Virus genome (UHGV): UHGV-0332340
Direction: 5' to 3' (one strand)
Source: a virus
DNA: 42,718 nt
Part shown: in pieces, positions 2,254 to 20,553 of the stretch
Layout of the letters: every line of letters starts with the position of its first letter
Position numbering within the stretch: the stretch's first letter is position 1
Program-made: the position numbers and the translations under genes
The notes under the pieces: model-generated
What the model was told of the DNA's origin: nothing
The model's database searches: none
Seen by the model: only the letters and a program-made list of their open reading frames with translations

Positions 2254-2256
2254 CAA

Positions 2257-3268: not shown

Positions 3269-3320
3269 CCTCCTTTAACTTTATGAATTAAGTATAACAC
3301 CTCAGTTAAGAGGTGTCAAG
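3269..3320 (-). promoter_or_regulatory. Early promoter P7 with spacer palindrome (ACACCTCAGTTAAGAGGTGT)
   Basis: TTGACA, 17-nt spacer, then TATACTTAATTCATAAAGTTAAAGGAGG. Nearly identical to P3. Confidence 0.6.
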
Positions 3321-3323
3321 TGT

Positions 3324-5603
3324 TTAGTCAATATAATTTTTAACTTCTGGAAACTCATCTATTTGGCTATGAGCCTGTTCAATACGCTCTTTCCAATTTG
3401 TGCCAAACCACATTACTAGTAAATCCTCTACCTGGGTTATATAATATTCTTTATCAATATCATCAAGCGTTATCCATCCTTCACCAATAGCTTCATTATC
3501 AATGGCATAATATTCAGGAGCATTAGGTAAGCCTTTAGTGTAAGAATCATCACCAACAATCGTTGTGCCTTCCTCTTCAATAATAGCTCCACGTTTCACC
3601 TTGAATATTTCAACAGCTTTATTAGGGTCTTTTACTGCAAAGGTGCGGTTTACTTTTTGTGCTTTAAGTTCATTGCCTTTACTATCACGCACCACAGTAT
3701 CATCAAAAGTATAACCTGTTTTCGTAATCATTTGGAACTGACGTAGTTCGTCACATTCATTGATAAACTCTTTATAGTCTTTACCAGCAACCACATAGTT
3801 AATAAAGGCATTTGAAACAATTGCTTTAGATACTTTCAAACCATTGGTTAGTCCTATAGCACCCTTAAACTTCACCTTACCATCTGATGTAACTGCCAAA
3901 TAATTATTGACGTCCTTCTGGAAAATAGCTTTAAATGGATCATCATCTAAGGTGTAACCTGTTCGTTTCATCCAATCATTTGCAATCTCATCAATGGCTT
4001 TTTCATCTTCTTCACTGAATGGAATATAGTAGTGTGCATCTGTGTTTGATTGAATAATAGTAGCATGGTCTTCAATCTTTTCTAGTAAGTCCCACATTGC
4101 CATCTGTCCAGTAATACATACTAATAACCTCATACGTGGATCATACAATTTATTAAATTCAGCTCCCATTGCACCATATTTCGTGTTTAGAGGTAGTTTA
4201 TAACCATTAATTAGCAACTTAGTTGGAATTTGAACGCCTTTAATTTCAGTAAATTCTTTATTAGAATACTTAGCTTCCATGCGTTCATCTAATAACATTT
4301 GATAGATATGCCGTTTATCTTCTGGAATATTTCTTGATAAGTAGTCAAACAGCACCATTGTGTTAGGGTACAATGATCCAACATCACGTGCGTGGAAGTT
4401 ACCTACATGAATAAATGACTCCTTAGCGCCATGTATACCACCTACTCCTAATACCTCTGTAACGTCTCTACGAGGAACATCTAATGAGATACTTGCATGT
4501 CCTTTATCATTAGCGTCAAAGTCATCTGTCATAAATGCCTGACGGATGGTCTCTGACTCAATTTCAAAGCCTTTTGGTAGTTCATACTTATCTAACTCAT
4601 CCCCTCTATCAGGTGTTTTTTCAGCCCCTAATAGTTCAGCAGTCAAGTTTGCGTTTGTCATTGACAGTGCCATTTTATCTAAACCAAAGTACAATGCAAT
4701 TGCGGCCTTAGCCACTAACATACCTATATTTTGCTCAAAACGTTTTTCCGTAGCTAACACATCATTCTTACAGTAAAGTTCATTCAGTACTTGCTCTTCT
4801 TCTGTTAGTTCTCTATCTAAGTCAAAATCAACCTCTGTTTCTTTAATATTGATACCCATGAAAGCACTATGCTCTTTCAAACTAAAACCCCTATTGTCTT
4901 GATACAAATCCATCCCAAACAGTGGGGTTTTCTTAGTATCAAACATTTTATATGCTAATGCTCTATCATCACTTTCAATAATCGCTTTTGACACATGAAA
5001 TGGGTTTTTACCTTGTAAATATGCACGCATGACATTGGAATCATATGAGTGTGAGTTATAGCCTACAAACAATGAATCTCTATTCGCTAGATAGAACTTG
5101 CGTAAAGCGTCTAAATCATTATGAATGACTGTCCATTCTTTAGTGAAGTAATCTCTGAAAACAAATAAATTATCTTTTTTAAATACTTCAATATCATAAA
5201 TATAGATGGTTTGTTTTGTTAGTGCCTCATTTGGTTTCTCAGGTAATACGTCAATCACTGCTCCTTTTTGATTAATGGTCACGTTTGGAAAACCATTGTT
5301 GTATTTTAGAGTAATCATTAACTGCTGCCCAACTTCTATTTTTTCCCAAGTTTTCCAATCTTGTTTACGAAACTTCATAATATAAAAAGTAGCGTCACGT
5401 CCATCATTTGTGCTACGTACTTTAATCTCTTTCATTTCTTTACCCTTAGCGCTTAAACGTTCTTCTGCTTTAATCACTACAACTTGGTGAACTCCTTCAA
5501 TCATTGGATCAAAACTTTTTCCATTCCCAGCTAATGCTGAGAATATTTCTAACAACTTACTTGCTAGCTTTTCAGCACCTTTAAATTCTGCAATATTTTT
5601 CAT
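3324..5603 (-). CDS. DNA polymerase, family B
   Basis: Exo I YDIEV, Exo II YNSHSYD, Exo III YCKNDV. Pol motif A DVGSLYPNTMV, motif B KLPLNTKYGAMG, motif C QSNTDAHYY. Confidence 0.8.
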   Translation of the reverse strand: MKNIAEFKGAEKLASKLLEIFSALAGNGKSFDPMIEGVHQVVVIKAEERLSAKGKEMKEIKVRSTNDGRDATFYIMKFRKQDWKTWEKIEVGQQLMITLKYNNGFPNVTINQKGAVIDVLPEKPNEALTKQTIYIYDIEVFKKDNLFVFRDYFTKEWTVIHNDLDALRKFYLANRDSLFVGYNSHSYDSNVMRAYLQGKNPFHVSKAIIESDDRALAYKMFDTKKTPLFGMDLYQDNRGFSLKEHSAFMGINIKETEVDFDLDRELTEEEQVLNELYCKNDVLATEKRFEQNIGMLVAKAAIALYFGLDKMALSMTNANLTAELLGAEKTPDRGDELDKYELPKGFEIESETIRQAFMTDDFDANDKGHASISLDVPRRDVTEVLGVGGIHGAKESFIHVGNFHARDVGSLYPNTMVLFDYLSRNIPEDKRHIYQMLLDERMEAKYSNKEFTEIKGVQIPTKLLINGYKLPLNTKYGAMGAEFNKLYDPRMRLLVCITGQMAMWDLLEKIEDHATIIQSNTDAHYYIPFSEEDEKAIDEIANDWMKRTGYTLDDDPFKAIFQKDVNNYLAVTSDGKVKFKGAIGLTNGLKVSKAIVSNAFINYVVAGKDYKEFINECDELRQFQMITKTGYTFDDTVVRDSKGNELKAQKVNRTFAVKDPNKAVEIFKVKRGAIIEEEGTTIVGDDSYTKGLPNAPEYYAIDNEAIGEGWITLDDIDKEYYITQVEDLLVMWFGTNWKERIEQAHSQIDEFPEVKNYID

Positions 5604-5704
5604 TCCTTACTTCCTCTCTCGTTTGAATATAATATAGTATATCACGTCTATTGTTAATACACAAGTGCAAAATATAAATTCTATGAAACTCTCTATTGTG
5701 TGTC

Positions 5705-5911
5705 TCATTGGAACATTCTAAACTGTCTTGGGTGACCTTGTGTTTGCATATATAATACATCATCTAACTTATAAACAGCAATAGTTTTCTTCTTGTTTGC
5801 AATCATCATCTGAGTTGGATCAATCTTCATATACACCTCATTAAAATGTCTGTTGATAATTACACCATCTTCATCTTTCACTGTTAAAATTAAGTTGTCT
5901 ACTAACATCAT
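5705..5911 (-). CDS. Hypothetical protein
   Basis: 68-aa ORF with RBS AAGGAGG upstream. The 5581-5763 ORF overlapping it is probably spurious. Confidence 0.4.
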   Translation of the reverse strand: MMLVDNLILTVKDEDGVIINRHFNEVYMKIDPTQMMIANKKKTIAVYKLDDVLYMQTQGHPRQFRMFQ

Positions 5912-5925
5912 TTTAATCTTCCTCC

Positions 5926-6252
5926 TTATTTGAAGTCATCTTTGTTCATCAATGCGCCAATAATATTGAATAGTGAAATAATTGTAGGAATACCTGTCCA
6001 ACAAAACACTAGTTTAATAAGTCCTTTTACTGGTTTTCCAACGTAGAAATCATGGGCACCAATTCCTCCTAAGAAGAGTGCTAGCAATAAATAAACAGTC
6101 AAACTTGGCTTACTAGAATCATCTTTCATGCTTTTAAGTTGTGCTAATTGTTCCTTTAAAATTTCGTTTTGTAATTGATCGTTAGTCATTTCTTTTTCCT
6201 CCTCTTTATTCATATTTGCTAAAGTGTTTAATACTGGATTTTGTTTTTTCAT
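5926..6252 (-). CDS. TM2-domain membrane protein with N-terminal coiled coil
   Basis: Two TM helices and a GIGAHDFYVGK motif (TM2 domain, GxHxFYxG). Conserved early promoter/leader upstream. Confidence 0.55.
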   Translation of the reverse strand: MKKQNPVLNTLANMNKEEEKEMTNDQLQNEILKEQLAQLKSMKDDSSKPSLTVYLLLALFLGGIGAHDFYVGKPVKGLIKLVFCWTGIPTIISLFNIIGALMNKDDFK

Positions 6253-6286
6253 TTTAATCTTCCTCTCTTTATCTTATGAATTAAGT

Positions 6287-6499
6287 TTACCATGCAAAGC
6301 TCACTTTGTCAATGTTTTTAACTGCTAATTTTAAATCTTTTTCTAAGAAAGCTTCTGTTGAACCACTGTACAACTTAACCAGGTATTCCCAGCCGTCAAC
6401 TGGTTCATACAGCTTATATAACAGTACTCCTTTATCGCCCTTATTACCTATTCCGTTTAGGTTATCTCGTTTTAACTCTACCCCATTTCCAATATTCAT
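6287..6499 (-). CDS. Hypothetical protein (true start at MNIGNG...)
   Basis: The ORF-track N-terminus 'MIYLMHKLRGGIKM' is read-through of the conserved leader CATAAGTTAAGAGGAGG. The real ATG is at 6499. Confidence 0.45.
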   Translation of the reverse strand: MNIGNGVELKRDNLNGIGNKGDKGVLLYKLYEPVDGWEYLVKLYSGSTEAFLEKDLKLAVKNIDKVSFAW

Positions 6500-6587
6500 T
6501 TTAATACCTCCTCTTAACTTATGCATTAAATATATCATGAGAAAATAAAAGAGTCAAGCGTTTATGCTCAACTCTTTTACATTTATT

Positions 6588-7295
6588 TTAGAATGGTAAT
6601 TCCTCTTCTGTTACTGCTTCTTTTTGATCATCTGGGTCTAATGGCTGTGCTTCTAACCATCCATAAGGTGATTTAGGGTCTAACATGTTTTTGTTAACAG
6701 TACAATCCACAACCATTCCAATAGCCATTTCTGCAGTATCCCATGTTACATTTACATCTTCAAACAATTCATTAAATCGTGCTTTTGCTTTGGCAAGTTT
6801 CGCTTGATTTGGAATAAATTTGTTTAATTTCTCAATATATACTCCCGAGTTGAAATTAAATGAGTAGTATTTACCTTCATGCTCAACAACTACTGCTCGT
6901 CCTTTGGCACTGTCTTTGATTTCAACGATTGGAACTTGCTTCAATCGTTTTAGTGAAACCAGTGGCTTCTCAATTTTTTTAAATGATGTTCCTTCTTCAA
7001 AGTATGCTTTACCTGTTTCTTCATCTACGTACATTTCTAGTTCTTTATCTTCAAGGTTGTCAAATGAGCCACCTAAAATTTCTAATGCGTTTGCTAATCG
7101 TTCTTTACCTTTTGTATCTTCATCTGTGAAGTCATGCCACGTTTTAGAGTCTTTGTCATATGTTTGTTTAAACACTGCTGCTTCATAGATCGCGCTATAA
7201 TCTTCACTGGCTACCTGTAATTTTACACTAATATCATCTTCCTCTGAGCTAACAATAATTACTTTTTTTAATTCTGACATTTTAATTTCCTCCAA
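6588..7295 (-). CDS. Putative ssDNA-binding/annealing protein (gp2.5-like), acidic C-terminal tail
   Basis: 235 aa ending in ...DPDDQKEAVTEEELPF. An acidic tail ending in Phe is the hallmark of SSB and T7 gp2.5-type proteins. It lies next to the MBL hydrolase and a coiled-coil protein in a recombination-like cluster. Confidence 0.35.
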   Translation of the reverse strand: MEEIKMSELKKVIIVSSEEDDISVKLQVASEDYSAIYEAAVFKQTYDKDSKTWHDFTDEDTKGKERLANALEILGGSFDNLEDKELEMYVDEETGKAYFEEGTSFKKIEKPLVSLKRLKQVPIVEIKDSAKGRAVVVEHEGKYYSFNFNSGVYIEKLNKFIPNQAKLAKAKARFNELFEDVNVTWDTAEMAIGMVVDCTVNKNMLDPKSPYGWLEAQPLDPDDQKEAVTEEELPF

Positions 7296-7362
7296 TTAAT
7301 TTGTTTTATTTTCTCTCTTACAAAATCTATTATAGCATATATTCCCTTACTTGTGTAGCTTG

Positions 7363-8178
7363 TTACAGTACCTCATAATCAATTTTAAGTTTCTTCAAGT
7401 CTTCTTTCTTCACTTTGATTGTCACATATTCAACTGGTTTAGGAGCCTCCTGTTTTTGCTCGTTTCCAGTGAGTATGACAATGTCAGGTGCTTTCGTTTC
7501 TTTTACTCTAGCCTGTTCTTTTTCAAGACGTTCTTTCTCAGCAATCATACTTGCATAGTCTAAAATAGCCTCTTGCATATTATGACCGTTTTTAGAGTAG
7601 GCAATTAGAATGGCTGAACGATCATCCTTGTCTGGATATTGTGTTTTTAATAGTTCATAGTCCTGTTTAAATGTTTCAAAGTAAGAAACCACTGCTTCAC
7701 GTATCTTTTTAGCACTTGTTGCCTTATTAGTAATTAGCGTTGGATTTTTGGCAATGAACTTATCAAAAGTAAGCCACTGTGGAGCGTTATATGACTTCTG
7801 ATATTTTTTAAATAAGTCCTTGATTTGTAACTTACGTTGTTCTTGTTCACGTGCAGTAATCTCTTTAATTTGTGCATTAATATGACCCTCACCTTCACCA
7901 AGTACCTCTTTCAATACTTTTATTTTCTCATTGAGTTCCTCATAGGGTGTCATAATTTCACGCTTAACAGCTAGACGTTCTGAGTCTAATTTTTTAATTT
8001 CTTTACGAATTTCAGCAAGAAGTTTTTTGTTTTCAATAATGTTTTCCTCATTCACTTCTTGCTCTTTCATACGGTCAGCTAATCTCCTAACATCTTCAAG
8101 TGTTTTTTCGTAGCCAATGAATTGTATTTCATGTTTACCTGTAGATTGAATTGATAATTCAAATGCCATATTTTTCAT
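7363..8178 (-). CDS. Coiled-coil protein, possibly recombination-associated (DUF1351-like)
   Basis: 271 aa, highly charged with long predicted coiled coils. Its position beside the SSB-like gene is typical of such proteins in Firmicutes phages. Confidence 0.3.
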   Translation of the reverse strand: MKNMAFELSIQSTGKHEIQFIGYEKTLEDVRRLADRMKEQEVNEENIIENKKLLAEIRKEIKKLDSERLAVKREIMTPYEELNEKIKVLKEVLGEGEGHINAQIKEITAREQEQRKLQIKDLFKKYQKSYNAPQWLTFDKFIAKNPTLITNKATSAKKIREAVVSYFETFKQDYELLKTQYPDKDDRSAILIAYSKNGHNMQEAILDYASMIAEKERLEKEQARVKETKAPDIVILTGNEQKQEAPKPVEYVTIKVKKEDLKKLKIDYEVL

Positions 8179-8328
8179 CCTTTAATTTGAGACGTTTATA
8201 TTCTACAGCAAATATTTCATTGACTGAATAATTAAATTTGAATAGCCATTTACAATTATCAATCACATTAAACAATTGGTTTTCAGTGTAGCCATAATCT
8301 AACTTTAACAGTGTTTTATAGTTCATCC

Positions 8329-8556
8329 TCACAGCTCCTCCTTCAACAAATCCAAATCTTCATCACTCAAGCGGTCAATCAGTTCAATATCTTCGTCACG
8401 TACTTCCTCAAAGCGTGCTGCAAATTCTCCAGTTTCAACTAAGACAAGAATGTTTCCAAACTTGTCTACATGTTGAACGGTACCTGTGTCACCTTGTGCT
8501 GCGTGCATTCCATAATTATTTGTGAATTTTACTAAGTCTCCATATTGGTATTTCAT
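8329..8556 (-). CDS. Hypothetical acidic protein
   Basis: Real start is MKYQYGDL at 8556. The upstream 'KHKERGGNKM' is a translated leader/RBS. The C-terminus is acidic. Confidence 0.4.
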   Translation of the reverse strand: MKYQYGDLVKFTNNYGMHAAQGDTGTVQHVDKFGNILVLVETGEFAARFEEVRDEDIELIDRLSDEDLDLLKEEL

Positions 8557-8591
8557 TTTGTTTCCTCCTCTTTCTTTATGTTTTAATTTTA

Positions 8592-9353
8592 TCATCTTAA
8601 TAGCCAGCTGTCAACATCTTTTTGTAAAATTTTTCCTTTTGAACGTTTAATTAATCCATCAAACGTGCGGTAGGTTTCTGACTGGTGTAGCTCTATATTA
8701 ATCATATCATCTTTACCAAATTTGTCAACAAATAACTCTCGTTCTGTTGTACTTAAATGACGGTAACTACCATTACTAAAGACGTCATATCCAGTGTGCG
8801 TTTTAGTTGATTCGTAAAATTCAATCACTTTAGGGTCATAATTAGCTTCAAGTAATAGGGTATCAATCTTTAAATCATTTTCCAATAGATACTTTTCATA
8901 GTCTGTCATTGTACTTAAGTCTGTGGCAAATAGAGTGTTTTGGTTAGGGGTCTCCATGATGAAACCATGTGTTTCTGTATACTCTTCCCCAGCTCCATGA
9001 TAATTCTGAAGGGTTGTGAACTTAACTTCACCAATTTGAAATTGGAAGTCATCTTTGAAAATAAGGTCTAACAGTGGTAAGTTACGTCTCTTTAAGTTAT
9101 CTTGTACTTCCTGGTTGCCTAATACTTTAATGTGCGGAAAGTTTTCTCTTATTTTTTTATATGTTGTATATACAAGGTGGTCTTGGTGTTTATGTGTTAT
9201 TAGAATAAATTGCTTGTTAAATAAATAGGGCTCAATATATTTATATGGCTTCCCTATGTCAATTAAGAATCCTAACTTATCATAATAGATAGAAGCGCAG
9301 TTTCCTTTACTTCCTGTATAGTGAATATCAAAACTCATGGTTTCTGTTTTCAT
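8592..9353 (-). CDS. Metallo-beta-lactamase-fold hydrolase
   Basis: HxHxDH motif (ITHKHQDH) and later His/Asp residues, 253 aa. Common in phage recombination modules. Confidence 0.65.
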   Translation of the reverse strand: MKTETMSFDIHYTGSKGNCASIYYDKLGFLIDIGKPYKYIEPYLFNKQFILITHKHQDHLVYTTYKKIRENFPHIKVLGNQEVQDNLKRRNLPLLDLIFKDDFQFQIGEVKFTTLQNYHGAGEEYTETHGFIMETPNQNTLFATDLSTMTDYEKYLLENDLKIDTLLLEANYDPKVIEFYESTKTHTGYDVFSNGSYRHLSTTERELFVDKFGKDDMINIELHQSETYRTFDGLIKRSKGKILQKDVDSWLLR

Positions 9354-9798: not shown

Positions 9799-10282
9799 CT
9801 TGTTTTTCCTCCAATTTTATTAGTTGGTCTACATAGACCTTCACTTTTTTCAAATCTTCAATACCATTTTTTTGCTTATATCTATGCGTATATTTGTAGA
9901 TGTTCGCTTTGTAGAAACCACGTAATTCTTCGTAGGTTAGTAAGTCGTCTTCTAACACGTCAAAGAGTTGTTTACCTGATTTAGTTTTGTAACGTGTTGT
10001 ATTTTGTAGCTCTTCACAGGTTAGTAAGTCGTCTTCTAATACATCAAAGAGCTGTCTACCTGAGTTGGATCTGTAACGTTTGGTTTTTTGTAGTTCTTCA
10101 TATTCATTATTTTTATTGTCAGGAGTTAACTGTTGCGGATTAAAGGAGTGAAAGCCTTTGTTACGTAAGTATACTCTTATTGGATAGGTGTTGTCACTTA
10201 TTGCAGTTATAACACCTTTTAATCCAATATAACTCTTATTGCTGTATTCTGTTACTCTGACCTTATCTCCAACTTTAAACAT
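9788..10282 (-). CDS. Hypothetical protein with KOW-like N-terminus and internal 28-aa tandem repeat
   Basis: N-terminus is MFKVGDKVRV. Two copies of EELQxTxRYxSxSGxQLFDVLEDDLLTxEEL are encoded by an 84-bp tandem DNA repeat at 9934-10101. Confidence 0.45.
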   Translation of the reverse strand: MFKVGDKVRVTEYSNKSYIGLKGVITAISDNTYPIRVYLRNKGFHSFNPQQLTPDNKNNEYEELQKTKRYRSNSGRQLFDVLEDDLLTCEELQNTTRYKTKSGKQLFDVLEDDLLTYEELRGFYKANIYKYTHRYKQKNGIEDLKKVKVYVDQLIKLEEKQDEI

Positions 10283-10421
10283 TTTATCAAATCCTCTCTC
10301 TTTTAACTATTTTAATAGTACCACATTCTTGTTTCAAAGTCAACACAAAAGTTTTGTTTTATGATATAATTAATTATAGGGATATTTCTCCTCCCTCCTC
10401 TCGTTAAGACTAGTCAATTGA

Positions 10422-10622
10422 CTAGTCTTTTTGTTTATAGTTTTGAATATCTGATAAATATCCAAAAACCTCGCGCGCGGTATGAAACTCAACTTTATGA
10501 GTGTCTTGTGGTTCATTAACATGAAAAATCTCTACATAATATTTTAACTCAAATCGTGATTGACTGAATACTGTCACACAATACCCATTTTTAAACTCTG
10601 TGCTAAATAATCGTTTATCCAT
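10422..10622 (-). CDS. Hypothetical protein
   Basis: 66-aa ORF lying directly after the primase gene. Confidence 0.35.
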   Translation of the reverse strand: MDKRLFSTEFKNGYCVTVFSQSRFELKYYVEIFHVNEPQDTHKVEFHTAREVFGYLSDIQNYKQKD

Positions 10623-10624
10623 TA

Positions 10625-11368
10625 TTAGTCCTCCATCCTTCTTATTTCACGCTTACGAACGCTCTCATATGTTTGCAGTACTTCATCCTCTGATAATGGT
10701 GGATTACAGCCAATCTGGTTTATATATAGAGACCACACACGCACCTCATCATGGTTTAATCCAGTTGCAAATAATTTACCAATCTGAGTAGTTAGCCAGA
10801 TATTTCTTCCGCCTTCCCCACTACCTGCAATTATATCACCTAATAAGTTCGCCGTCCATTTTCTTTCTCGCTTCTTATTCTTTTTAGTAATCGTTTTATC
10901 TGTGAACATTTCTAACCACTTCTCAGGTAACTCTGCGAGTTCTACGTCACGCACTACTTCGTAATACTTTCCGTCAATTTGGCTAGGTGGTGCAACAACG
11001 TACCTACCATGGACTTGGAAGTCAACGCCTTCTAGCTGCGAATGATTTTGAATAAATTGTGTTTCATTATATTTCTCATCTAATTTGAAATAAAAATGAT
11101 AGCCTCCGCTTGGCGTCTTGACAACCTTGGTCTTTGGCAATTCAATGTCATACGTATCCAAAAACTCTATTAAGTTACCCATACCATTCACACCTTTATG
11201 AGTGTCAATATCAATTACTGCAATCCCACTGGATGAGCCAGTGAGTATACCCACGTTGCCACCTTCTTGCACCCATGATTGAATTAATTTAAAATCTTCT
11301 CCATCAAACGCTCCAGCTACTAGTGGCGCTTTACCATTTTTCCTTAGTCTTAATTGTTTCATTTTCAT
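10625..11368 (-). CDS. Bifunctional primase-polymerase (Prim-Pol, AEP) N-terminal domain protein
   Basis: VIDIDTHKG and TPSGGYHFYF motifs typical of the Prim-Pol catalytic domain. Conserved early promoter with an operator-like palindrome upstream. Confidence 0.7.
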   Translation of the reverse strand: MKMKQLRLRKNGKAPLVAGAFDGEDFKLIQSWVQEGGNVGILTGSSSGIAVIDIDTHKGVNGMGNLIEFLDTYDIELPKTKVVKTPSGGYHFYFKLDEKYNETQFIQNHSQLEGVDFQVHGRYVVAPPSQIDGKYYEVVRDVELAELPEKWLEMFTDKTITKKNKKRERKWTANLLGDIIAGSGEGGRNIWLTTQIGKLFATGLNHDEVRVWSLYINQIGCNPPLSEDEVLQTYESVRKREIRRMED

Positions 11369-11369
11369 T

Positions 11370-11420
11370 CCTCCTCTTATTTATGTACTAAGTATAACAC
11401 CCCAGTTAAGGGGTGTCAAC
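11370..11420 (-). promoter_or_regulatory. Early promoter P3 with spacer palindrome (ACACCCCAGTTAAGGGGTGT)
   Basis: TTGACA, 17-nt spacer, then TATACTTAGTACATAAATAAGAGGAGG. The spacer holds a 7-bp inverted repeat. Confidence 0.6.
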
Positions 11421-13658: not shown

Positions 13659-13882
13659 GATTTCTTACTCAATCCTTTCTTTTTACCTGTTGCTTTCTCT
13701 TCACAAATAACTAGTACTTCATCAATTGTCAAGCCTGAGTCTTTCATGTGTTGTAATAGCCCACCATATAGTGCCCACATATATGTCTGTTCTTCCTCAC
13801 CATATTTTGAGAGTACTTTTGACTCTAATCTATCTGCAATAGCGTCCCATTCTTTTAATGTTAACATCATTCTTCCTCCCAA
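13655..13882 (-). CDS. Hypothetical protein
   Basis: 75-aa ORF overlapping its neighbours by 4 nt. Confidence 0.4.
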   Translation of the reverse strand: MGGRMMLTLKEWDAIADRLESKVLSKYGEEEQTYMWALYGGLLQHMKDSGLTIDEVLVICEEKATGKKKGLSKKS

Positions 13883-14082
13883 TTAATAATGTTAGTTGTA
13901 ATAGCGTCTTCTAAGTAGCGCTTTACACGTTGTGCCTCTTCCCGAGTTAGTGTTACAATGGCATTATCATCTTCATCGTCTATTAATCCAATGTAAATAT
14001 CACTATTGTTGTCATACGTTCCAACGTACACTTGCTCATTCGTTTCTGTTGTTAGTTCTTTTCTGTAATTGATTTTATCCAT
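13867..14082 (-). CDS. Hypothetical acidic protein
   Basis: 71 aa, rich in Asp/Glu. Confidence 0.4.
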   Translation of the reverse strand: MDKINYRKELTTETNEQVYVGTYDNNSDIYIGLIDDEDDNAIVTLTREEAQRVKRYLEDAITTNIINWEEE

Positions 14083-14083
14083 A

Positions 14084-14712: not shown

Positions 14713-15024
14713 CTTAATATCCTCCTTCTTCTAACCAGTGTATAAGTACTCCTGCTCCGTAAATTACTGCTCCAATAAATAATAACCCCATCATCATAAA
14801 TGTCATGTTTGTTTCCTCCTTAGGTGTTTTTAAATTCAATATAACATTTGTAAAGTGTGTAGCAATATATTGGCATTGCTAACAAGTTTATTGGATTTTG
14901 TTTGTATGTTACAACGCCCATCAATATGCCTAAATAAATAATTGCTTTTTTCATGTTACTTCCTCCTTCTCTATATTTATATAATACAATACCCTCAACA
15001 ATAAGTCAAGGGTAAAGTTTAAAA

Positions 15025-15249: not shown

Positions 15250-15260
15250 TCCGTTTCCTC

Positions 15261-16847
15261 CTATTCTACATCATTGAAAATGTTTACATACTCTGTTCCT
15301 GCTAATGCGTTCATTAAATATGGTCTAATTGACTCATTGTCTCCGTTGCGTGCAATCTTTAGACCAGTGAGGACACGTGCTTTACTTGTACGCTTTTCTT
15401 CAAAACCTTGTTTAAGTAATAATTCTTTCATGGTACGCCAGTTCATTGATTTGTTAATATTATTCTCTTTAGTGTACACATTAAAAATATTCTTCAATAG
15501 TGTTAGATTAACAGTGCCTTCTTCATCTTCCACAATGACAGGTACTTCACTCAAAAACTCTTTAGATGGGTCATTTGATTCAATATAAGCTTTCTTGAAG
15601 GCAATCATATCTTCTGTTTCTGTGAATGGGTTTTCACCATTTGTACCAGCATCTAAAATCTTTTTGAATTGTTGAATACAGAACCATGCAAATTTACCAA
15701 GTTGCTCTTTTGACTCACGTTCCTCACGTTGTTTGTTGAACTCATTAATACGTTCACGTGCTTCTGGTGTATCAAGATTGGTGTTGAAGTTTAGAATCAG
15801 AATACGTCTATACCATCCATTTGTACGGTCGTTAAATGCTGGTAGTTCATTCATGGAGAACATTAATTTCGCATAGTTGGTGAAACTAAACGCATCTTTT
15901 CCTTTTTTCTCAGCGTGAACGGCATCAAGACCTCCTGAAAGCTTTTTCAGTGTCTCTGTACCTTTTACAAAGTTTGCACTTGAATCCGCTTCAAAGTTTA
16001 GTAATTTATGGTGCAATGAAGCCTTGTCAAAACGATTGTTTTTATCTGCTAAGCTGTCTAGACCAACTGCTGAGCTGTTTTTGAATCCAATTAATTTGTT
16101 CATGATAAATCCACCTACATATGATTTACCGTTTGACCCATTACCTAAGAGGTATAAAATAGATTGATATTTGTATTCTCTATAATACATATACCCAATG
16201 TACTCATATAATGTTTGGGCTTGGTCTTTTAGTAGATAATCAATCCATTGTTTTGCGAGTAGTTCATCTGTCTCATCTGTTTTTATTAAAGGGTATGGTA
16301 ATTGAAGTGTGTGGTAATCTTCTAATCTGGTCTCTCTAATATCATTTGTTTTAAAGTCATATGTCCCATTTTCAAAGGCAATAATGTTTGGGTTAGGGTT
16401 GTCACCTAGTGGGGCGTGTTCCCCACGTGTCATGGAGCGATTAGCTAACTCAGGAGCTAGTTTCTTCATTTCTTTGCGAATCTCATTCCCGAATTCTGGA
16501 TTTCTGAATTGTGGTGTGAATTTTGGTGCTAAAATGTTCTCAAAATACCAATCTGAATATTTGTAACTACCTAGATTTACCTCAGACCAGATACGTGTGT
16601 CTGCATTATATACGTATGGCGCATTCAAGTTAGGGTGAGCGTACACATAGGCTAGCTGGTTAAATTTATCAATGAATAATTCCTGTTGAATCTCAAATTT
16701 TGGTTGTGTACCATCTTTGCCTCCGTAGTACATCCTTCCTACTTCTGAATTGAAGTCCACAAACTCCTCACTTGGAAAGTTTTTATTTGAAACTGGTAGT
16801 AATTCCTCAACTGGTGCTGAGTAATCTATTTTAGTTAGTTCATTCAT
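15261..16847 (-). CDS. D5/P4-type primase C-terminal domain + SF3 helicase
   Basis: Walker A LLGNGSNGKS, Walker B LLNFEAD and motif C FSMNELP give an SF3 NTPase. The N-terminal ~230 aa resemble a primase C-terminal/D5_N region. Confidence 0.65.
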   Translation of the reverse strand: MNELTKIDYSAPVEELLPVSNKNFPSEEFVDFNSEVGRMYYGGKDGTQPKFEIQQELFIDKFNQLAYVYAHPNLNAPYVYNADTRIWSEVNLGSYKYSDWYFENILAPKFTPQFRNPEFGNEIRKEMKKLAPELANRSMTRGEHAPLGDNPNPNIIAFENGTYDFKTNDIRETRLEDYHTLQLPYPLIKTDETDELLAKQWIDYLLKDQAQTLYEYIGYMYYREYKYQSILYLLGNGSNGKSYVGGFIMNKLIGFKNSSAVGLDSLADKNNRFDKASLHHKLLNFEADSSANFVKGTETLKKLSGGLDAVHAEKKGKDAFSFTNYAKLMFSMNELPAFNDRTNGWYRRILILNFNTNLDTPEARERINEFNKQREERESKEQLGKFAWFCIQQFKKILDAGTNGENPFTETEDMIAFKKAYIESNDPSKEFLSEVPVIVEDEEGTVNLTLLKNIFNVYTKENNINKSMNWRTMKELLLKQGFEEKRTSKARVLTGLKIARNGDNESIRPYLMNALAGTEYVNIFNDVE

Positions 16848-17368
16848 TATTCCATTTCCTCCTTATATTTAAACGTGTAGCCCCCAGTTTGATTCAGTCT
16901 ACCTTGCAGTGCTCGTGAAATGCTAGGTTGATGTAAGCTCAATTCTCTGGCGCATTCGTTTGAGCTATTGAAGTCTGTAGATTCACCCGTTTTGATATTA
17001 GTTGCAATGATTGGAATACTTTGCGTTTTAGTAATCGCTTTACCTATTCTTTCATTGCGTGTTCCGTGATTATTATTTTCTTTTGCAGTAACCCATTCTA
17101 GGTTGTCAACTCTATTGTTTGTTTTATCTTCGTCAATATGATTCACTTGCGATTTGTTATCTGGGTTTGGTATAAACGCTTGTGCTACTAGTCTATGAAT
17201 TCGCTTGTTAGACTTAGTACTGTTTTTGAATAGCCCCACTCTTAGATATCCCTGTGAATTAATATAACTCTTCAAAATACGGTTAGTATTAACTCGCTTA
17301 ACTCTTCCCAAATTACTCACTTGATAGATACCTTCATAGTCTTTAATATCTTTCCAAATTTCATTCAT
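16847..17368 (-). CDS. HNH homing endonuclease (NUMOD4 + HNH_3)
   Basis: WKDIKDYEGIYQVSNLGRVKR is a NUMOD4 motif. HRLVAQAF...VNHID.DKTNNRVDNLEWVT is an HNH_3 motif. ATGA overlap with the helicase gene. Confidence 0.8.
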   Translation of the reverse strand: MNEIWKDIKDYEGIYQVSNLGRVKRVNTNRILKSYINSQGYLRVGLFKNSTKSNKRIHRLVAQAFIPNPDNKSQVNHIDEDKTNNRVDNLEWVTAKENNNHGTRNERIGKAITKTQSIPIIATNIKTGESTDFNSSNECARELSLHQPSISRALQGRLNQTGGYTFKYKEEME

Positions 17369-17430
17369 TTTTAATTCCCCCTTATGTACTTAGTATAGCA
17401 CAAATGAAAACTTTGTGCTATACCTTTTAA

Positions 17431-17613
17431 TTAAAAATATTTAGCAATTGATTCAACTGAGTCTTTTATATCTAATTGAGTACCGTTTGACAGGATAACA
17501 ATAGTGTATTCCCAAGCTTTGTTGTGATAGAATGCCGCAATGTGATTAATGTTTACATATACAGTTGTTTCATCAATTCTGGTCAATGTGATTAGTTCGT
17601 TCGTTTTATTCAT
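17431..17613 (-). CDS. Hypothetical protein
   Basis: 60-aa ORF. Confidence 0.35.
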   Translation of the reverse strand: MNKTNELITLTRIDETTVYVNINHIAAFYHNKAWEYTIVILSNGTQLDIKDSVESIAKYF

Positions 17614-17785
17614 AATTCACCTCAAATTCTAATACCTGCTCTTTTTGAATATAGGTTTTTACTTTATTGGTATTATCATATAAAATTAAATAGTCATCTT
17701 CAAAGTAATACTTATCAATGTAATTAAATTCAGTTACTTCTATACCTTCTCCAGCATTGTATTTTGTCAATAATACTTTAAACAT
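17606..17785 (-). CDS. Hypothetical small protein (59 aa)
   Basis: Manual translation gives MFKVLLTKYNAGEG...EVNYE. Its stop overlaps the start of the next gene. Confidence 0.3.
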   Translation of the reverse strand: MFKVLLTKYNAGEGIEVTEFNYIDKYYFEDDYLILYDNTNKVKTYIQKEQVLEFEVNYE

Positions 17786-17803
17786 TATTTTGTCATCCTC
17801 TCT

Positions 17804-18124
17804 TTATTTCGCAAAATAACCTTTTATATATGCCAAGCGTTGTGAATCGTTGTCATACATATTATTAGCTCTGAGAATTACTTTGTTAACATCAAAGGCT
17901 GTATACTTGCGTTTCTCAGTCTCTACTTTTGATTGCGTCTCTTTTAATTTAAATTGATAATCAGTTTTATTCAAATACTTATTTGTCCATTTAGCACCAT
18001 CATCATCAACCAGACATAGTTCACCCCAACTGTTTACTATTACTTTATACTCTTTACCTACTGTCCACCATGGTCTATCTGCCTTGATACAAACATATGT
18101 TTGTCCTTCTTTTAAGTTTAACAT
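17804..18124 (-). CDS. Hypothetical protein
   Basis: 106 aa with RBS GAGGAGG. Confidence 0.45.
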   Translation of the reverse strand: MLNLKEGQTYVCIKADRPWWTVGKEYKVIVNSWGELCLVDDDGAKWTNKYLNKTDYQFKLKETQSKVETEKRKYTAFDVNKVILRANNMYDNDSQRLAYIKGYFAK

Positions 18125-18186
18125 TTCATTTTCCTCCTCTGTTATGATTACACTACTAAGCTTACTTGTTGTTAGTTTAAACGTTA

Positions 18187-18348
18187 CTATCTATTATAAT
18201 TTGTTGCTTCCTTACAGTCAATAATTTTATAGTGTTTTTTGGGATATGTCAAGCGAAAGTCATCAATTGCAGCTCTCATTGTTTCAGCTAGATAGCTTAA
18301 TTGAATAGTTTGTGTGTGTCGTTTTGCTAGAATGATAAATGTGCTCAT
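18187..18348 (-). CDS. Hypothetical small protein (53 aa)
   Basis: RBS TAGGAGT followed by ATG. Fills the otherwise empty 18125-18360 gap. Confidence 0.25.
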   Translation of the reverse strand: MSTFIILAKRHTQTIQLSYLAETMRAAIDDFRLTYPKKHYKIIDCKEATNYNR

Positions 18349-18360
18349 ATTATTTTACTC

Positions 18361-18702
18361 CTATTTTTTCTGTAATGGTGGTGTTGCTTCATCACTATTG
18401 GGTACCTCACATCCTATGATATTATTATATATAATATCATAACTAACAGTTCTTGGTTTGTCAAGTTGTTTTTTCAATTCTTCATTTTCGTTGATTAGTT
18501 GAGTGTTGCGTTCTTTTAAATAGTTGTTTTCTTTAAAAATTGTTTTGGCTTGTTCTACAAACATTTCTTTTTGATCTTTGTGGAAATCTCTACTTCGTTC
18601 TAGTTTTTCTATTCTATCATCACACGTTTTATCTGCCATTTTTATACCTAAGCAGATCATTAGTAGTGACCATATAATGAATAATACAATATATCCAATC
18701 AT
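18361..18702 (-). CDS. Small membrane protein (N-terminal TM + coiled coil)
   Basis: N-terminus IVLFIIWSLLMICLGI forms a TM helix, followed by a charged coiled coil. RBS AGGAGG. Confidence 0.5.
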   Translation of the reverse strand: MIGYIVLFIIWSLLMICLGIKMADKTCDDRIEKLERSRDFHKDQKEMFVEQAKTIFKENNYLKERNTQLINENEELKKQLDKPRTVSYDIIYNNIIGCEVPNSDEATPPLQKK

Positions 18703-18758
18703 TTATTTTTCCTCCTATTTGTTTATATAATAATTATAAGTCACATTTATCATTCTTG

Positions 18759-19016
18759 TCAAGTTGTTTTCTCAATTCTTCGTTTTCTTTTTTTAAGCTC
18801 TCTCATCATTGTGTTCACACGTACCATATTTTCGTAAATGGATTGATAGTCATTCTCATAACGTTTCACCTGTTCAACCAAACGTTTGTTCAATTCTTTT
18901 AACTTTTTAATACGTTTGCGGTTTACTTTATCACCTAATTTGAAGGCGAATACTGCTGTAAATTTTAAAATCATTAGAATTACCACTACTAATAGTAGTC
19001 TAATTATGAAATTCAT
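18759..19016 (-). CDS. Small membrane protein (N-terminal TM + basic coiled coil)
   Basis: N-terminus IIRLLLVVVILMILKF forms a TM helix, followed by a K/R-rich helix. Confidence 0.5.
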   Translation of the reverse strand: MNFIIRLLLVVVILMILKFTAVFAFKLGDKVNRKRIKKLKELNKRLVEQVKRYENDYQSIYENMVRVNTMMRELKKRKRRIEKTT

Positions 19017-19195
19017 TCTTCTTCCTCCATAATCTCATCAATAATTTCCAATAAATCTTTTCTCATTTGTTCTTTGCGTGCTTTTTCTTTTTTAATTTTT
19101 CTATCTGTCTTAATCTCATCAATCATATAGATGATAGCTATAATACCTACGGCAGCTAATAGATTAATTATTACAAGATATGTTATCATTATCAT
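19013..19195 (-). CDS. Small membrane protein (N-terminal TM + charged tail)
   Basis: TM helix YLVIINLLAAVGIIAIIYMI, then a KKEKARKEQMRK stretch and an acidic end. Confidence 0.45.
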   Translation of the reverse strand: MIMITYLVIINLLAAVGIIAIIYMIDEIKTDRKIKKEKARKEQMRKDLLEIIDEIMEEEE

Positions 19196-19389
19196 TGTTC
19201 TTCCTCCTTATATAGTTTAATTTTATCCATACCAATCATCATATATCCAACAACAACCATCAGTTCATCATATGTTAAAGTGACTTGATATTTAAAGCTA
19301 TTTTCAGTACATACACCATTTTGCCAGTATCCACTTGCAACATCTTTTAGTGGATTATTCCATTCGTCAATTTCTCTTTTTAAATTCAT
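19192..19389 (-). CDS. Hypothetical protein
   Basis: 65-aa ORF with an ATGA-type overlap. Confidence 0.4.
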   Translation of the reverse strand: MNLKREIDEWNNPLKDVASGYWQNGVCTENSFKYQVTLTYDELMVVVGYMMIGMDKIKLYKEEEQ

Positions 19390-19400
19390 CTTATTTCCTC

Positions 19401-19727
19401 CTATTTGTAAATGTCCATCAATTTGATAATTTTCTGAAATAGTTGTGTATCTTTTGTGAGAAAATGAAAGCGTTCTTGGTGTAAGTTATCTAACCAGTGA
19501 AAGCGCTTTTCTAATTCGTTTAACTCTTCGATTATGGTGCGCATTTCTTTTTCAGATTGTTCTATTTTGTTATGTGTCTGCCAGTAACGTTGTGTGGTGT
19601 GGCTCTGCATGCTGTCTGGTTCGTTCATCTTCATTAATTGTTCCATTGCTTTCTCATGAGACTTAGAGAGTCGTTTGAACTCTCTAAGCTGTATCTTCAT
19701 GATCTCAGTGTAATATTTGGCTAACAT
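19401..19727 (-). CDS. Hypothetical coiled-coil protein
   Basis: 108 aa. Confidence 0.4.
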   Translation of the reverse strand: MLAKYYTEIMKIQLREFKRLSKSHEKAMEQLMKMNEPDSMQSHTTQRYWQTHNKIEQSEKEMRTIIEELNELEKRFHWLDNLHQERFHFLTKDTQLFQKIIKLMDIYK

Positions 19728-19954
19728 AGTAACATCTCCTTAAGTTTACGGTAGTCATCTCTTAACTCAGCTAAAACTTTTTCTTCAGCGTCATTATCGT
19801 TTGCCCATTTGAATATTTCATCCATATGATTGTCTAACCATTCTGAAGTCATTTCCATTTCTTCATTGCTTTCAATTTCTGCCATTTCGTCTACGAAGTC
19901 GCTCGCTAGTTTATCCATTTTAACTTGTAGTTCGTTGTATTTTTCGTGTGTCAT
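19721..19954 (-). CDS. Small highly acidic protein (candidate DNA mimic)
   Basis: 77 aa, 23 Asp/Glu against 9 Lys/Arg. Second gene of the early operon, behind the conserved promoter. Confidence 0.45.
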   Translation of the reverse strand: MTHEKYNELQVKMDKLASDFVDEMAEIESNEEMEMTSEWLDNHMDEIFKWANDNDAEEKVLAELRDDYRKLKEMLLC

Positions 19955-19962
19955 TTTGTTTT

Positions 19963-20014
19963 CCTCCTCTTATCTTATGCACTAAGTATAACATGCTTAG
20001 AAACCAGTGTCAAC
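19963..20014 (-). promoter_or_regulatory. Early promoter P2 (TTGACA-N17-TATACT + conserved leader)
   Basis: TTGACA, 17-nt spacer, then TATACTTAGTGCATAAGATAAGAGGAGG. Confidence 0.6.
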
Positions 20015-20243
20015 TGTTTAGCAACATTTTTCTAATTGTTTTATAGTGTCCTTTGATTGCCGCTTCTTTGTTTCTATATTGCTTGGTATACTCTGATAGT
20101 TCATCATAGTTAAAAATCTGTCTGTCCATTGCTTCAAAAACCATTGTCTCGTAAAGTGGAATTGTTTTGCTCAGCCAGGTTGTGCTAATGCAATACTCAA
20201 CGCCGTCTATTTCAATAAATGTTTTAATGTCTATTTCATTCAT
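20010..20243 (-). CDS. Hypothetical protein
   Basis: 77-aa ORF. Confidence 0.4.
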   Translation of the reverse strand: MNEIDIKTFIEIDGVEYCISTTWLSKTIPLYETMVFEAMDRQIFNYDELSEYTKQYRNKEAAIKGHYKTIRKMLLNS

Positions 20244-20276
20244 AATTAATTCCTCCTTTTTATTTTACTTCAAGTA

Positions 20277-20495
20277 CTACTTGCTGTTTAGATACTCATA
20301 TAGTACCAATGCATCCAACCCAATAATCATTGGTAGAGTCAATGTGATTGCTAAAATACCATCTAGCGTTTCTGAGAATCCCTGTATTGAAATCATCATA
20401 CTTGTCTCGTAGATTAGTATTACTCCAAAGGTATTTATTGCTAACAACGACAACATATTTGCCACCATCACTAATATTAACAAAAGTTTCTTCAT
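20277..20495 (-). CDS. Small membrane protein, first early gene
   Basis: Real start is MKKLLLILVMV at 20495. The upstream 'LVHKLRGGINM' is a translated leader. The protein has 2-3 TM helices. Confidence 0.45.
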   Translation of the reverse strand: MKKLLLILVMVANMLSLLAINTFGVILIYETSMMISIQGFSETLDGILAITLTLPMIIGLDALVLYEYLNSK

Positions 20496-20502
20496 ATTTA
20501 TT

Positions 20503-20553
20503 CCTCCTCTTAACTTATGAACTAAGTATAGCATGTTCAGCACCAAGCGTCAA
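20503..20553 (-). promoter_or_regulatory. Early promoter P1 (TTGACG-N17-TATACT + conserved leader CATAAGTTAAGAGGAGG)
   Basis: On the minus strand: TTGACG, a 17-nt spacer, then TATACTTAGTTCATAAGTTAAGAGGAGG. Confidence 0.6.

Follow-up and report, generated by a model that had tools for sequence, protein, structure and literature searches.

Repeated early promoter–leader cassettes in an Enterococcus faecium siphophage genome and its relatives

The closest described counterparts of the element analysed here are the promoter-early stem-loop (PeSL) cassettes of T4-type myophages (Arbiol et al. 2010, PMC2839356; Comeau et al. 2014, PMC4122927). The element, a 60-base-pair (bp) cassette comprising a σA-type promoter, a short leader, and a Shine–Dalgarno (SD) sequence, recurs on the minus strand of UHGV-0332340, a viral stretch of 42,718 nucleotides (nt) that we refer to as the window and that is essentially the complete genome (42.7 kb) of a virulent Enterococcus faecium siphophage. 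The kind of element, a PeSL-like composite early cassette, is known; new are the phage and host lineage and the unusually fixed start region and leader. We consider it probable, at roughly 60%, that every copy works by itself as a portable unit of early expression transcribed by the host σA RNA polymerase.

The resemblance to PeSL cassettes extends to several features. In particular, many copies of an apparently strong σ70-type early promoter are present and end, on the 3′ side, in the SD sequence and start codon; some copies have a stem-loop between the −35 and −10 elements, or over one of these boxes, just past the upstream stop codon; the genes downstream are mostly small and of unknown function; and related phages differ by insertion, deletion, or replacement at the copies. 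Unlike PeSL cassettes, those of the window belong to a 42-kb siphophage of a Gram-positive host and show no sequence relationship to the T4-type elements, carry the stem-loop in only three of the seven full copies and in a partial one, and have a near-invariant discriminator, start region, and whole 5′ untranslated region (UTR), which is not a defining PeSL trait. The cassette is best regarded as a PeSL analogue, not a homologue; any terminator activity or mini-circle formation would be putative.

Each half of the cassette has a separate counterpart. The early promoters of phage T5, such as PN25, are likewise near-consensus and read by host polymerase, and their purine-rich start affects strength and escape; specifically, the initially transcribed sequence shifts promoter strength more than 10-fold, and a purine-rich one favours escape at the escape-limited, near-consensus T5 N25 (PMC5961368, PMC12464699). 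Unlike the cassettes, PN25 belongs to an Escherichia coli system, and T5 promoters depend in addition on an A/T block further upstream. We take the N25 start region to read TATAAT AGATTC ATAAATTTGAGAGAGGAG, resembling TATACT TAGTTC ATAAGTTAAGAGGAGG of the cassettes, a reading that we looked for in two papers and could not confirm.

The leader half, with a strong SD-like polypurine tract near the predicted 5′ end, recalls the STAB-SD of cryIIIA, the SP82 polypurine stabiliser, and the hbs ribosome-binding site. In Bacillus, long stretches of downstream mRNA are stabilised when a ribosome-binding site lies at the 5′ end or close to it (PMC3997798, citing the STAB-SD and SP82 polypurine papers), and ribosome binding at a 5′ polypurine tract guards long downstream RNA from 5′-end-dependent decay (PMC3997798; PMC5737220). 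Unlike STAB-SD, which lies far upstream of the start codon, the cassette SD also serves the first gene directly for ribosome binding.

A further counterpart is the SAS/ESAS system of cluster K mycobacteriophages, with a 13-nt SAS motif, GGGATAGGAGCCC, to which no function has yet been assigned (Pope et al. 2011, PMC3203893). Like SAS, the cassette leader is an asymmetric motif that includes the ribosome-binding site, lies just upstream of many starts of varied gene families in a single orientation, and is conserved across its clade as SAS is across subclusters. Unlike the cassette leader, SAS is not described as promoter-linked, ESAS adds 17-bp inverted repeats, and the hosts are high-GC Actinobacteria. 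Ahead of the cassette starts the sequence differs from GGGATAGGAGCCC and shows no similarity to it.

Early mRNAs can also be the object of regulation: T4 RegA and RegB act on early mRNAs, and small RNAs with C-rich loops are known in Firmicutes. As in the RegA/RegB idea, the early starts of the window share a signature that a phage-made shut-off factor could use; no RegA or RegB homologue was found. As in CU-rich anti-SD small RNA families, a candidate small RNA of the window has a CU-rich anti-SD loop and a terminator.

Anatomy and copies of the cassette

Seven minus-strand sites of the window share one architecture: TTGACA, a 17-nt spacer ending in TGn, TATACT, and then TTARTTCATAAGNTAAGAGGAGGAA, with the ATG 5–8 nt further on. 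The cassette consensus is TTGACA, 14 nt, TGn, TATACT, TTARTTC, ATAAG(T/A)TAAGAGGAGGAA, 3–6 nt, and ATG. The −35 hexamer is TTGACA in five copies, TTGACG in one, and TTGACT in one; the −10 box is TATACT in four copies and TAAAAT, TATATT, and TAAACT once each, and is TG-extended in 7/7. These features support the description of the copies as consensus σA-type promoters fused directly to a short leader and SD sequence, as a preliminary description made from the sequence of the window had proposed. That description gave an exact 17-nt spacer and a −10 of TATACT; the spacer is 17 nt in all seven, but TATACT is exact in only four.

A 53-nt profile built from the copies gives exactly seven strong matches in the window, all on the minus strand and scoring 34.7–51.2 bits, with −35 starts at 20553, 20013, 11419, 8614, 6557, 6312, and 3319. 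A partial eighth copy lies at 17403-17380 (10.8 bits). On the plus strand of the window there is no match at E < 0.01, the top match being 28006-28053 (9.4 bits, E = 0.043). The coordinates of the preliminary description all hold the described sequence on the minus strand, and its "at least eight units" become seven full copies and one partial copy, whereas 10293-10344 is a σA-type promoter with a different leader.

The combination far exceeds chance. TTGACA-N16-18-TATACT occurs three times in the window (0.08 expected), and the −10 plus leader string, with three mismatches allowed, also three times (0.00 expected). When TG-extended −35/−10 promoters on the minus strand are picked without the leader, the leader is present in 7/8, the eighth promoter (8728) lying inside the metallo-hydrolase gene. 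Across the seven leader-blind promoters, mean pairwise identity is 0.72 over the 22 nt after the −10 box, compared by the same measure with 0.36 in the spacer, 0.41 upstream, and 0.32 in coding sequence; the background for seven-promoter identity is 0.29, with a maximum of 0.38 over 2000 random sets.

The copies, the partial copy, and the site outside the family are as follows (ORF, open reading frame; aa, amino acids).

Cassette 1, 20493..20553, minus strand: TTGACG 20553-20548, 17-nt spacer, TGC and TATACT 20530-20525, discriminator TAGTTC, predicted +1 A 20518, purine run AAGAGGAGGAA 20511-20501, ATG 20495; 50.4 bits; no stem-loop; first promoter of the leftward arm, ahead of a 72-aa hydrophobic ORF (20277..20495, minus strand).
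Cassette 2, 19952..20013, minus strand: TTGACA-17-TGT TATACT, predicted +1 19978, AAGAGGAGGAAAA, ATG 19954; 51.2 bits; stop codon TGA of the upstream ORF within the −35 hexamer; ahead of a 77-aa acidic ORF (19721..19954, minus strand).
Cassette 3, 11360..11419, minus strand: predicted +1 11384, ATG 11362; 45.2 bits; leader with a 1-nt deletion, CATAA-ATAAGAGGAGG; predicted to drive the primase-polymerase gene 10625..11362.
Stem-loop of cassette 3, 11396-11417, minus strand: 8 bp, GACACCCC/GGGGTGTT, between −35 and −10; −19.1 kcal/mol, z −4.7.
Cassette 4 (diverged), 8554..8614, minus strand: TTGACA-17-TGA TAAAAT, leader TAAAACATAAAGAAAGAGGAGGAAA, predicted +1 8579, ATG 8556; 34.7 bits; ahead of a 75-aa ORF (minus strand).
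Cassette 5, 6497..6557, minus strand: TTGACT-17-TGA TATATT, predicted +1 6522, AAGAGGAGG, ATG 6499; 41.1 bits; predicted to drive a 70-aa ORF.
Stem-loop of cassette 5, 6545-6580, minus strand: 15 bp, terminator-like; −18.1 kcal/mol, z −3.8; 3′ arm holding the −35, and promoter spacer forming a canonical T-tract in the terminator scan.
Cassette 6, 6250..6312, minus strand: TTGACA-17-TGG TAAACT, leader TAATTCATAAGATAAAGAGAGGAAGATTAAA, predicted +1 6277, ATG 6252; 38.6 bits; TAA of the −10 box also the stop codon of the upstream ORF; ahead of a 108-aa ORF and, further on, DNA polymerase (minus strand).
Cassette 7, 3258..3319, minus strand: predicted +1 3284, AAAGGAGGAA, ATG 3260; 45.1 bits; ahead of the thioredoxin-like gene 3039..3260 (73 aa) and then the nucleotide kinase gene (minus strand).
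Stem-loop of cassette 7, 3296-3317, minus strand: 8 bp, GACACCTC/GAGGTGTT, between −35 and −10, beginning 5 nt past the DNA polymerase stop codon; −16.4 kcal/mol, z −4.3.
Partial copy, 17366..17423, minus strand: −10 TATACT and AAGTACATAAGGGGGAATTAAAA, ATG 17368, without a −35; ahead of the HNH/NUMOD4 homing-endonuclease gene 16847..17368 (minus strand; Pfam NUMOD4 and HNH_3).
Stem-loop of the partial copy, 17393-17423, minus strand: 13 bp, enclosing the −10; −18.9 kcal/mol, z −4.6.
Promoter outside the family, 10280..10344, minus strand: TTGACT-17-TACTAT with the unrelated short leader TAAAATAGTTAAAAGAGAGAGGATTTGATAAA, ATG 10282; no profile match.

Five of the seven cassettes precede ORFs of 70–108 aa without predicted function; the other two precede the thioredoxin-like and primase-polymerase genes. 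(Names of the thioredoxin-like and nucleotide kinase genes follow the annotation of phage dArtagnan.) Gene packing around the cassettes is tight. The metallo-hydrolase gene (8592..9353) holds the −35 and spacer of cassette 4 within its 3′ end, the overlap covering its last 23 nt, as the preliminary description, which called this gene MBL, had noted.

The seven copies lie along one arm of the genome. GC skew and ORFs divide the window into a leftward minus-strand early/replication arm (~20550 to 2330, ~18 kb) and a rightward late arm (20978 to the end plus 1-2253). A strong terminator-like hairpin is present at 2256-2282 (plus strand), where the two arms converge.

The start of transcription is predicted at the A of CATAAG, 7 nt past the −10 box and behind a C. 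On this prediction the "22-nt leader" of the preliminary description comprises ~6 nt (TTARTTC) of probably untranscribed discriminator, followed by transcribed sequence, and the 5′ UTR is 22–25 nt long, with 14–18 purines in its first 20 nt. The N-terminal extensions HKLRGGINM, HKLRGGIKM, and KHKERGGNKM of the ORF track are translated leaders, as that description had said. The SD sequence (AAGAGGAGG) is 8–9 nt long and ends 5–8 nt ahead of the ATG, and the purine run that bears it starts 3–9 nt from the predicted 5′ end (6–9 nt in 6/7 copies). In five of seven predicted UTRs the SD sequence is mostly unpaired (probability unpaired 0.69–0.95; 0.23 for 20553 and 0.36 for 3319). Its duplex with the 16S rRNA tail has a mean energy of −12.5 kcal/mol in the cassettes versus −9.1 kcal/mol in other early genes (p = 0.013). 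A structured leader RNA or riboswitch is ruled out, the predicted UTRs being 22–25 nt long and mostly unstructured.

The leader is bound to the promoter. In five genomes, the core CATAAGnTAAG lies exactly 5 nt after a −10 box in 20 of 31 loose matches, and only three SD-linked look-alikes of this core occur without a promoter. The fixed distance of the conserved core from the −10 box agrees better with a function tied to the start site or 5′ end than with that of a free-standing translation enhancer. The conserved, promoter-linked leader of the preliminary description is upheld, and a translation enhancer, which it also considered, fits less well if free-standing.

Stem-loops overlap three of the seven full copies (3319, 6557, and 11419), the partial copy, and the non-family promoter 15009, with z-scores of −2.8 to −4.7, and begin a few nucleotides past the upstream stop codon. 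A canonical T-tract accompanies only the 6557 stem-loop in the terminator scan. The spacer hairpin of the 3319/11419 type is paired in 98% of cells across seven distinct versions and includes two pairs with compensatory changes (CCTC/GAGG, CCCC/GGGG, CCCA/TGGG), a score reached by 4 of 500 shuffles. The stem-loops probably attenuate or end read-through from upstream units.

At 14990-15014 (minus strand) a stem-loop encloses the −35 of the non-family promoter 15009 (TTGACT-17-TATTAT). A second, smaller early cassette family is represented at 18700-18762 (minus strand) by TTGACAAG..ATGTGACTTAyAAT, followed by TATTATATAAACAAATAGGAGGAAA and ATG. This 18762-type family has consensus −35 and −10 elements without TG and a different short leader; members lie at ~39875 in locus L001 and at 37188 and 36877 in locus L048, and the family is duplicated in phage IME-EFm1.

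Distribution, selection, and recombination

The nearest kin of the window are dArtagnan, Aramis, RG1, the KEN phages, and IME-EFm1/EFm5, at 85–90% identity; remoter kin are the Efquatrovirus phages of E. faecalis. A profile search of the window and 43 loci from related phages gave 129 cassette matches. Complete genomes carry seven copies (window, dArtagnan, and IME-EFm1), six (EFap02), or two (SANTOR1), and the range across the clade, Efquatrovirus included, is 2–7 per genome, always on the early coding strand.

Beyond these genomes the cassette is confined to the same kind of phage. In IMG/VR a degenerate cassette pattern matches 37 stretches, all on contigs of ≤44 kb and most on 37–44 kb contigs of the clade, and a leader-only pattern adds few further matches, of the same kind. 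One match, on the 59-kb contig L053, was set aside as chance. Across 185,579 bacterial and archaeal species, one genome each, the strict cassette pattern has no match, and the 19-base leader alone has eight, none of them in Enterococcus; a host origin of the leader is rejected on these grounds. A single cassette-like site in a Bacilli metagenome-assembled genome (locus L042, contig JAVXAN010000005.1, 6875-6927, minus strand) reads TTGACT-17-TAATAT TAATTCATAAGATAAGAGGAGGAA before a pilin-like gene (GFTLVELL motif); in its 28% GC bacterial chromosome context it is probably due to chance or convergence. Rfam gives nothing at gathering thresholds on the window, and thus no known RNA family, and the searchable literature ties no motif string to phages; promoter predictions in papers on these phages are generic or absent.

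Copies differ where the leader does not. The −35/−10 spacers and upstream DNA of the copies fall into unrelated families, and the leader is common to all. Within orthologous families, defined by the same gene and same spacer family, the leader has 15% variable columns and a mean pairwise divergence of 0.084, close to the −10 box (12%, 0.068), and compared with 37% and 0.169 for the spacer, 57% and 0.266 for the 20 nt upstream, and 32% and 0.147 for third codon positions. Unrelated spacers together with a leader about as constant as the −10 box indicate that the leader is selected and not just recently duplicated. The 6312 family provides a second line of evidence: its variant leader CATAAGATAAAGAGAGGAAGATTAAA is unchanged from CATAAG to ATG in eight orthologous copies while the spacers diverge, indicating vertical purifying selection rather than homogenisation.

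The same constancy holds at greater distance. The leader is identical at 29 of 30 positions between the window and SANTOR1, and likewise in the main cassettes of EFap02, with ~40% of the early arm alignable and protein identities of 65% for polB, 56% for the metallo-hydrolase, and 56–65% across polB, the primase-polymerase, and the metallo-hydrolase. The claim that the leader is conserved for a reason thus gains weight, the leader being near-identical across phages with 56–65% core-protein identity and varying like the −10 box, and the concern raised in the preliminary description, that related phages might lack leader conservation, is removed for this clade.

Cassettes are also points of exchange. 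Among 127 cassettes, 29 spacer families and 45 downstream gene starts form 56 pairings; 13 spacer families are found ahead of two or more genes, and six genes stand behind more than one spacer family, with the junction within the leader. Three tandem cassettes are present in locus L005 and two in L025, the missing gene having been excised between leaders. In comparisons with dArtagnan and IME-EFm1, 10 of 58 long homology-block ends lie ≤15 nt from a cassette versus 2.0 expected (P ~1e-4), a count that omits short cassette-to-cassette matches and becomes 19/90 when these are included. The suggestion that the repeats act as recombination or module-shuffling sites agrees with this placement at recombination and indel junctions.

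HNH/NUMOD4 homing-endonuclease genes stand directly behind full or partial leaders at differing places in different phages, and these mobile genes may use the leader for landing or for expression:

16847-17423, minus strand, window: HNH/NUMOD4 gene behind the partial copy.
27437, dArtagnan (L001 26855-27437): HNH/NUMOD4 gene by a cassette leader.
~6988, L013: HNH/NUMOD4 gene by a cassette leader.
~7544, L026: HNH/NUMOD4 gene by a cassette leader.

In outline, then, the interpretation of the preliminary description, a functional leader and cassettes that act as recombination sites, is partly supported.

Proposed function of the cassette

Our proposal starts from the observed anatomy, copy number, strand bias, conservation, and junction enrichment, and from these it predicts start sites, promoter activity and strength, escape, transcript stability, effects on translation, and terminator activity. 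The near-consensus −35, 17-bp spacer, and TG-extended, slightly sub-consensus −10 would give very tight polymerase binding; the fixed A/T-rich 6-nt discriminator (TTARTTC) and purine-rich start would fix the start site; and the invariant start region would serve polymerase escape from a very tightly bound promoter. The strong 5′-proximal ribosome-binding site would give high translation independent of the gene, and a ribosome bound near the 5′ end would shield the transcript from 5′-to-3′ decay, as in other Firmicutes. Along the 18-kb leftward arm, cassettes would restart transcription at intervals, and stem-loops after the upstream stops would attenuate read-through. As a side effect, the shared 30–55 bp would form a homology patch at which small genes and homing-endonuclease genes are inserted, deleted, and swapped.

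Several points weigh against this proposal. The searchable literature on this phage group contains no start-site, promoter-activity, half-life, or translation measurements, and the mechanism is for that reason drawn from E. coli and Bacillus work. A strong SD sequence is also common to many non-cassette genes. A purely cis-acting optimum has no obvious need for this exact sequence, other σA promoters of the window (18762, 15009, and 10344) having different short leaders. In ~70% of copies the −10 box is TATACT and not TATAAT, suggestive of some additional constraint. The stem-loop scan finds none at 20553, 20013, 8614, and 6312, that is, at 4/7 copies. Copies entered the conservation analysis through a leader-containing profile, which inflates apparent conservation, a bias that the leader-blind checks reduce but do not remove. 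Finally, a conserved anti-SD small RNA exists, and selection for repressibility may contribute.

Alternative explanations and implications for Enterococcus phages

The alternative that fares best concerns this small RNA. It is possible, though doubtful in our estimation, that the leader (the extended SD sequence AGAGGAGG plus AA(U)) is kept as the target of an anti-SD small RNA of the phage, so that early genes would be shut off post-transcriptionally and late mRNAs spared. An RNA from a late-type promoter would, on this tentative account, pair with early ribosome-binding sites, block translation, and expose the mRNA to decay. Such regulation is compatible with the cis-acting cassette model, and complements it as much as it rivals it. 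The features concerned are as follows.

10344..10434, plus strand, window: candidate small RNA gene; promoter CACA-N14-TGA TATAAT with the −10 at 10365-10370; predicted transcript ~10377-10434, ~55 nt.
~31589-31680, L001: small RNA relative.
~31431-31520, L048: small RNA relative.
~25264-25370, plus strand, L047: small RNA relative.
~11570-11470, minus strand, L049: small RNA relative.
20931, 22617, 23691, 28005, 30945, and 31614, plus strand, window: CACA-class promoter sites ahead of late-arm genes (first late gene, terminase region, capsid, and major tail).
10344, plus strand, window: CACA-class site in the early arm, ahead of the candidate small RNA, back to back with a minus-strand promoter.
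7355, minus strand, window: CACA-class site ahead of an early-arm gene.

The predicted small RNA of the window folds into a 5′ hairpin (AGGGA/UCCCU) with a CU-rich loop, followed by a single-stranded stretch, CCUCCUCUC, and a rho-independent terminator hairpin at 10406-10429, with a T-run on the plus strand only and a fold z-score of −4.05. Its gene lies opposite the early-gene strand and is present in all five complete genomes, in 15 distinct versions of 54–73 nt with one common fold. The loop of 7–9 nt contains (A/C)UUCCUCC in every version except that of the window (UAUUUCUCC), and the second stretch, CCUCCUCUC, is present in the E. faecium phages. The stems are wholly different between subgroups, and compensatory changes affect 12 of 21 pairs in the six Efquatrovirus versions, whose loop stays constant. 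GGAGGAA(U) is the complement of the loop, and AGAGGAGG that of the second stretch; jointly the loop and second stretch, both anti-SD motifs, match the invariant AGAGGAGGAAU of the cassette leader. Rfam gives sub-threshold matches only, to RF02278 (Betaproteobacteria toxic sRNA; 23.7 versus a gathering threshold of 50) and RF02877 (NmsRb; 24.1 versus 52), both of which we take to be CU-rich anti-SD small RNA families. From these complementarities we infer that the small RNA may regulate the cassette leaders.

The promoter of the small RNA belongs to a class, CACA-N14-TGnTATAAT, whose extended −10 is perfect and whose −35 position holds only CACA, and which occurs at eight sites in the window versus 0.12 expected. 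It is present at conserved positions in dArtagnan and IME-EFm1, and its placement suggests a phage-specific middle or late promoter type.

Early and late genes also differ at their start sites. In the window, GGAGGAA lies ≤25 nt upstream of the start in 19/39 early versus 2/26 late genes (p = 4.5e-4), and the split is repeated in four other genomes (L001, L047, L048, and L049), giving 75/148 versus 9/100 pooled (odds ratio 10.4, p = 2e-12), in a test designed after some late starts had been seen and relying on our own SD-based gene calls. Late genes favour SD sequences of the GGAGT, GGAGGT, and GGAGTG types. Pairing with the small-RNA loop is stronger for early genes (p = 0.001–0.005), whereas late genes pair with 16S rRNA no less strongly. 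The ubiquity of the small RNA gene, its covarying stems, and a loop constant but for that of the window favour the small-RNA account, as does the early excess of GGAGGAA.

Set against it are the occurrence of GGAGGAA at many early genes without a cassette and its absence from cassettes 6557 and 6312; the cassette-specific TTARTTCATAAGNTAAG, which it leaves unexplained; and the many host mRNAs that an anti-SD sequence of 8–10 nt would match too. For the whole 5′ region of the window RNA, duplex energies show no early/late difference (p = 0.44). A cis-acting role is an alternative for the RNA, which is antisense to read-through RNA and overlaps, back to back, the −35 of the minus-strand 10344 promoter; its expression, timing, and targets are putative. 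More broadly, and again with little confidence, this clade, in which no phage-encoded polymerase or sigma factor is recognisable, may schedule its genes by two promoter classes and two start-site dialects: TTGACA-type cassettes with GGAGGAA ribosome-binding sites for early genes, and CACA-N14-TGnTATAAT promoters with other SD types for late genes. The late-class small RNA would then mask early GGAGGAA sites through its UUCCUCC loop, with the leader SD plus AA(U) as its docking site.

An unlikely explanation is that the stretch from −10 to ~+15 is a protein binding site, either an operator for a repressor or the target of an RNA-binding translational repressor or endoribonuclease like T4 RegA/RegB. 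Conservation does exceed the needs of a promoter and SD sequence, and the C of TATACT and a weak dyad, ACTTA-N5-TAAGT, spanning −9 to +6 in the consensus, would fit such a site. However, the dyad arms are only 4–5 bp in AT-rich DNA with a centre as conserved as the arms, copies with an altered left arm (TATAGT AGGTA...) still keep CATAAG, the element is strictly asymmetric and occurs in a single orientation relative to transcription, and its most invariant part is transcribed. As the operator of a dimeric repressor the element fails: ACTTA-N5-TAAGT is its only dyad, the centre is conserved, the right arm is kept when the left differs, and the orientation is single.

Many early ORFs are without known function, and the 71-aa ORF 13870-14082 (minus strand) is a possible regulator candidate. 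Among 20 early proteins, however, Pfam finds no helix-turn-helix or RNA-binding domain above threshold, which counts against a protein site; above threshold are DUF1140 and the HNH/NUMOD4 endonuclease, and below it FlbD and a T4 y05I-like match. The regulator or RNase that the preliminary description had suggested for the leader was not identified as a protein in this set. The y05I-like match, to a putative transcription-factor C-terminal domain, is that of ORF 13870-14082 itself (E = 7e-5; 23.5 bits versus a cut-off of 27).

It is quite improbable that nothing beyond an ordinary promoter and SD sequence is selected, and that recent duplication and gene conversion (concerted evolution) account for the similarity. 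Recombination at cassettes is frequent, 3319 and 11419 share even the spacer, and SD-to-ATG spacer variants reassort between promoters and genes, all in favour of this view. Against this, the leader is common to copies whose spacers and upstream DNA are unrelated, is less variable than synonymous sites, and is near-identical across phages with 56–65% protein identity and ~40% of the early arm alignable, and the 6312 variant leader is kept vertically in its eight orthologous copies.

That the sites are not promoters at all, but chance consensus matches or DNA repeats for, for example, replication or packaging, is very unlikely: the starts are predicted, and a simple promoter scan of this AT-rich genome returns 117 consensus-like sites versus 88 expected, but the complete −35/17-nt/TGn/−10 arrangement, set at a constant spacing from SD and ATG, appears seven times and on a single strand only, with ~0 expected by chance, and the layout is kept in ~130 copies, always just ahead of a gene start.

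The portable early cassette remains our preferred reading of the repeats. The cassettes provide a transcription map for Enterococcus phages employed in phage-therapy work (dArtagnan, Aramis, IME-EFm, KEN, and Efquatrovirus phages), comprising seven predicted early starts, a late promoter class, and likely attenuators. They account for the placement of mosaic joints in these genomes, a point of practical weight for cocktails whose related members recombine. As a compact, apparently very strong, gene-independent expression signal, the 60-bp cassette is a possible genetic tool for enterococci. The anti-SD small RNA and the early/late split in start sites add some interest to a modest cassette finding; if true, the small-RNA link would offer a testable route for early-gene shut-off in small virulent siphophages without transcription machinery of their own. 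Composite promoter/terminator early cassettes mediating shuffling would cease to be known solely from T4-type phages of Gram-negative hosts.

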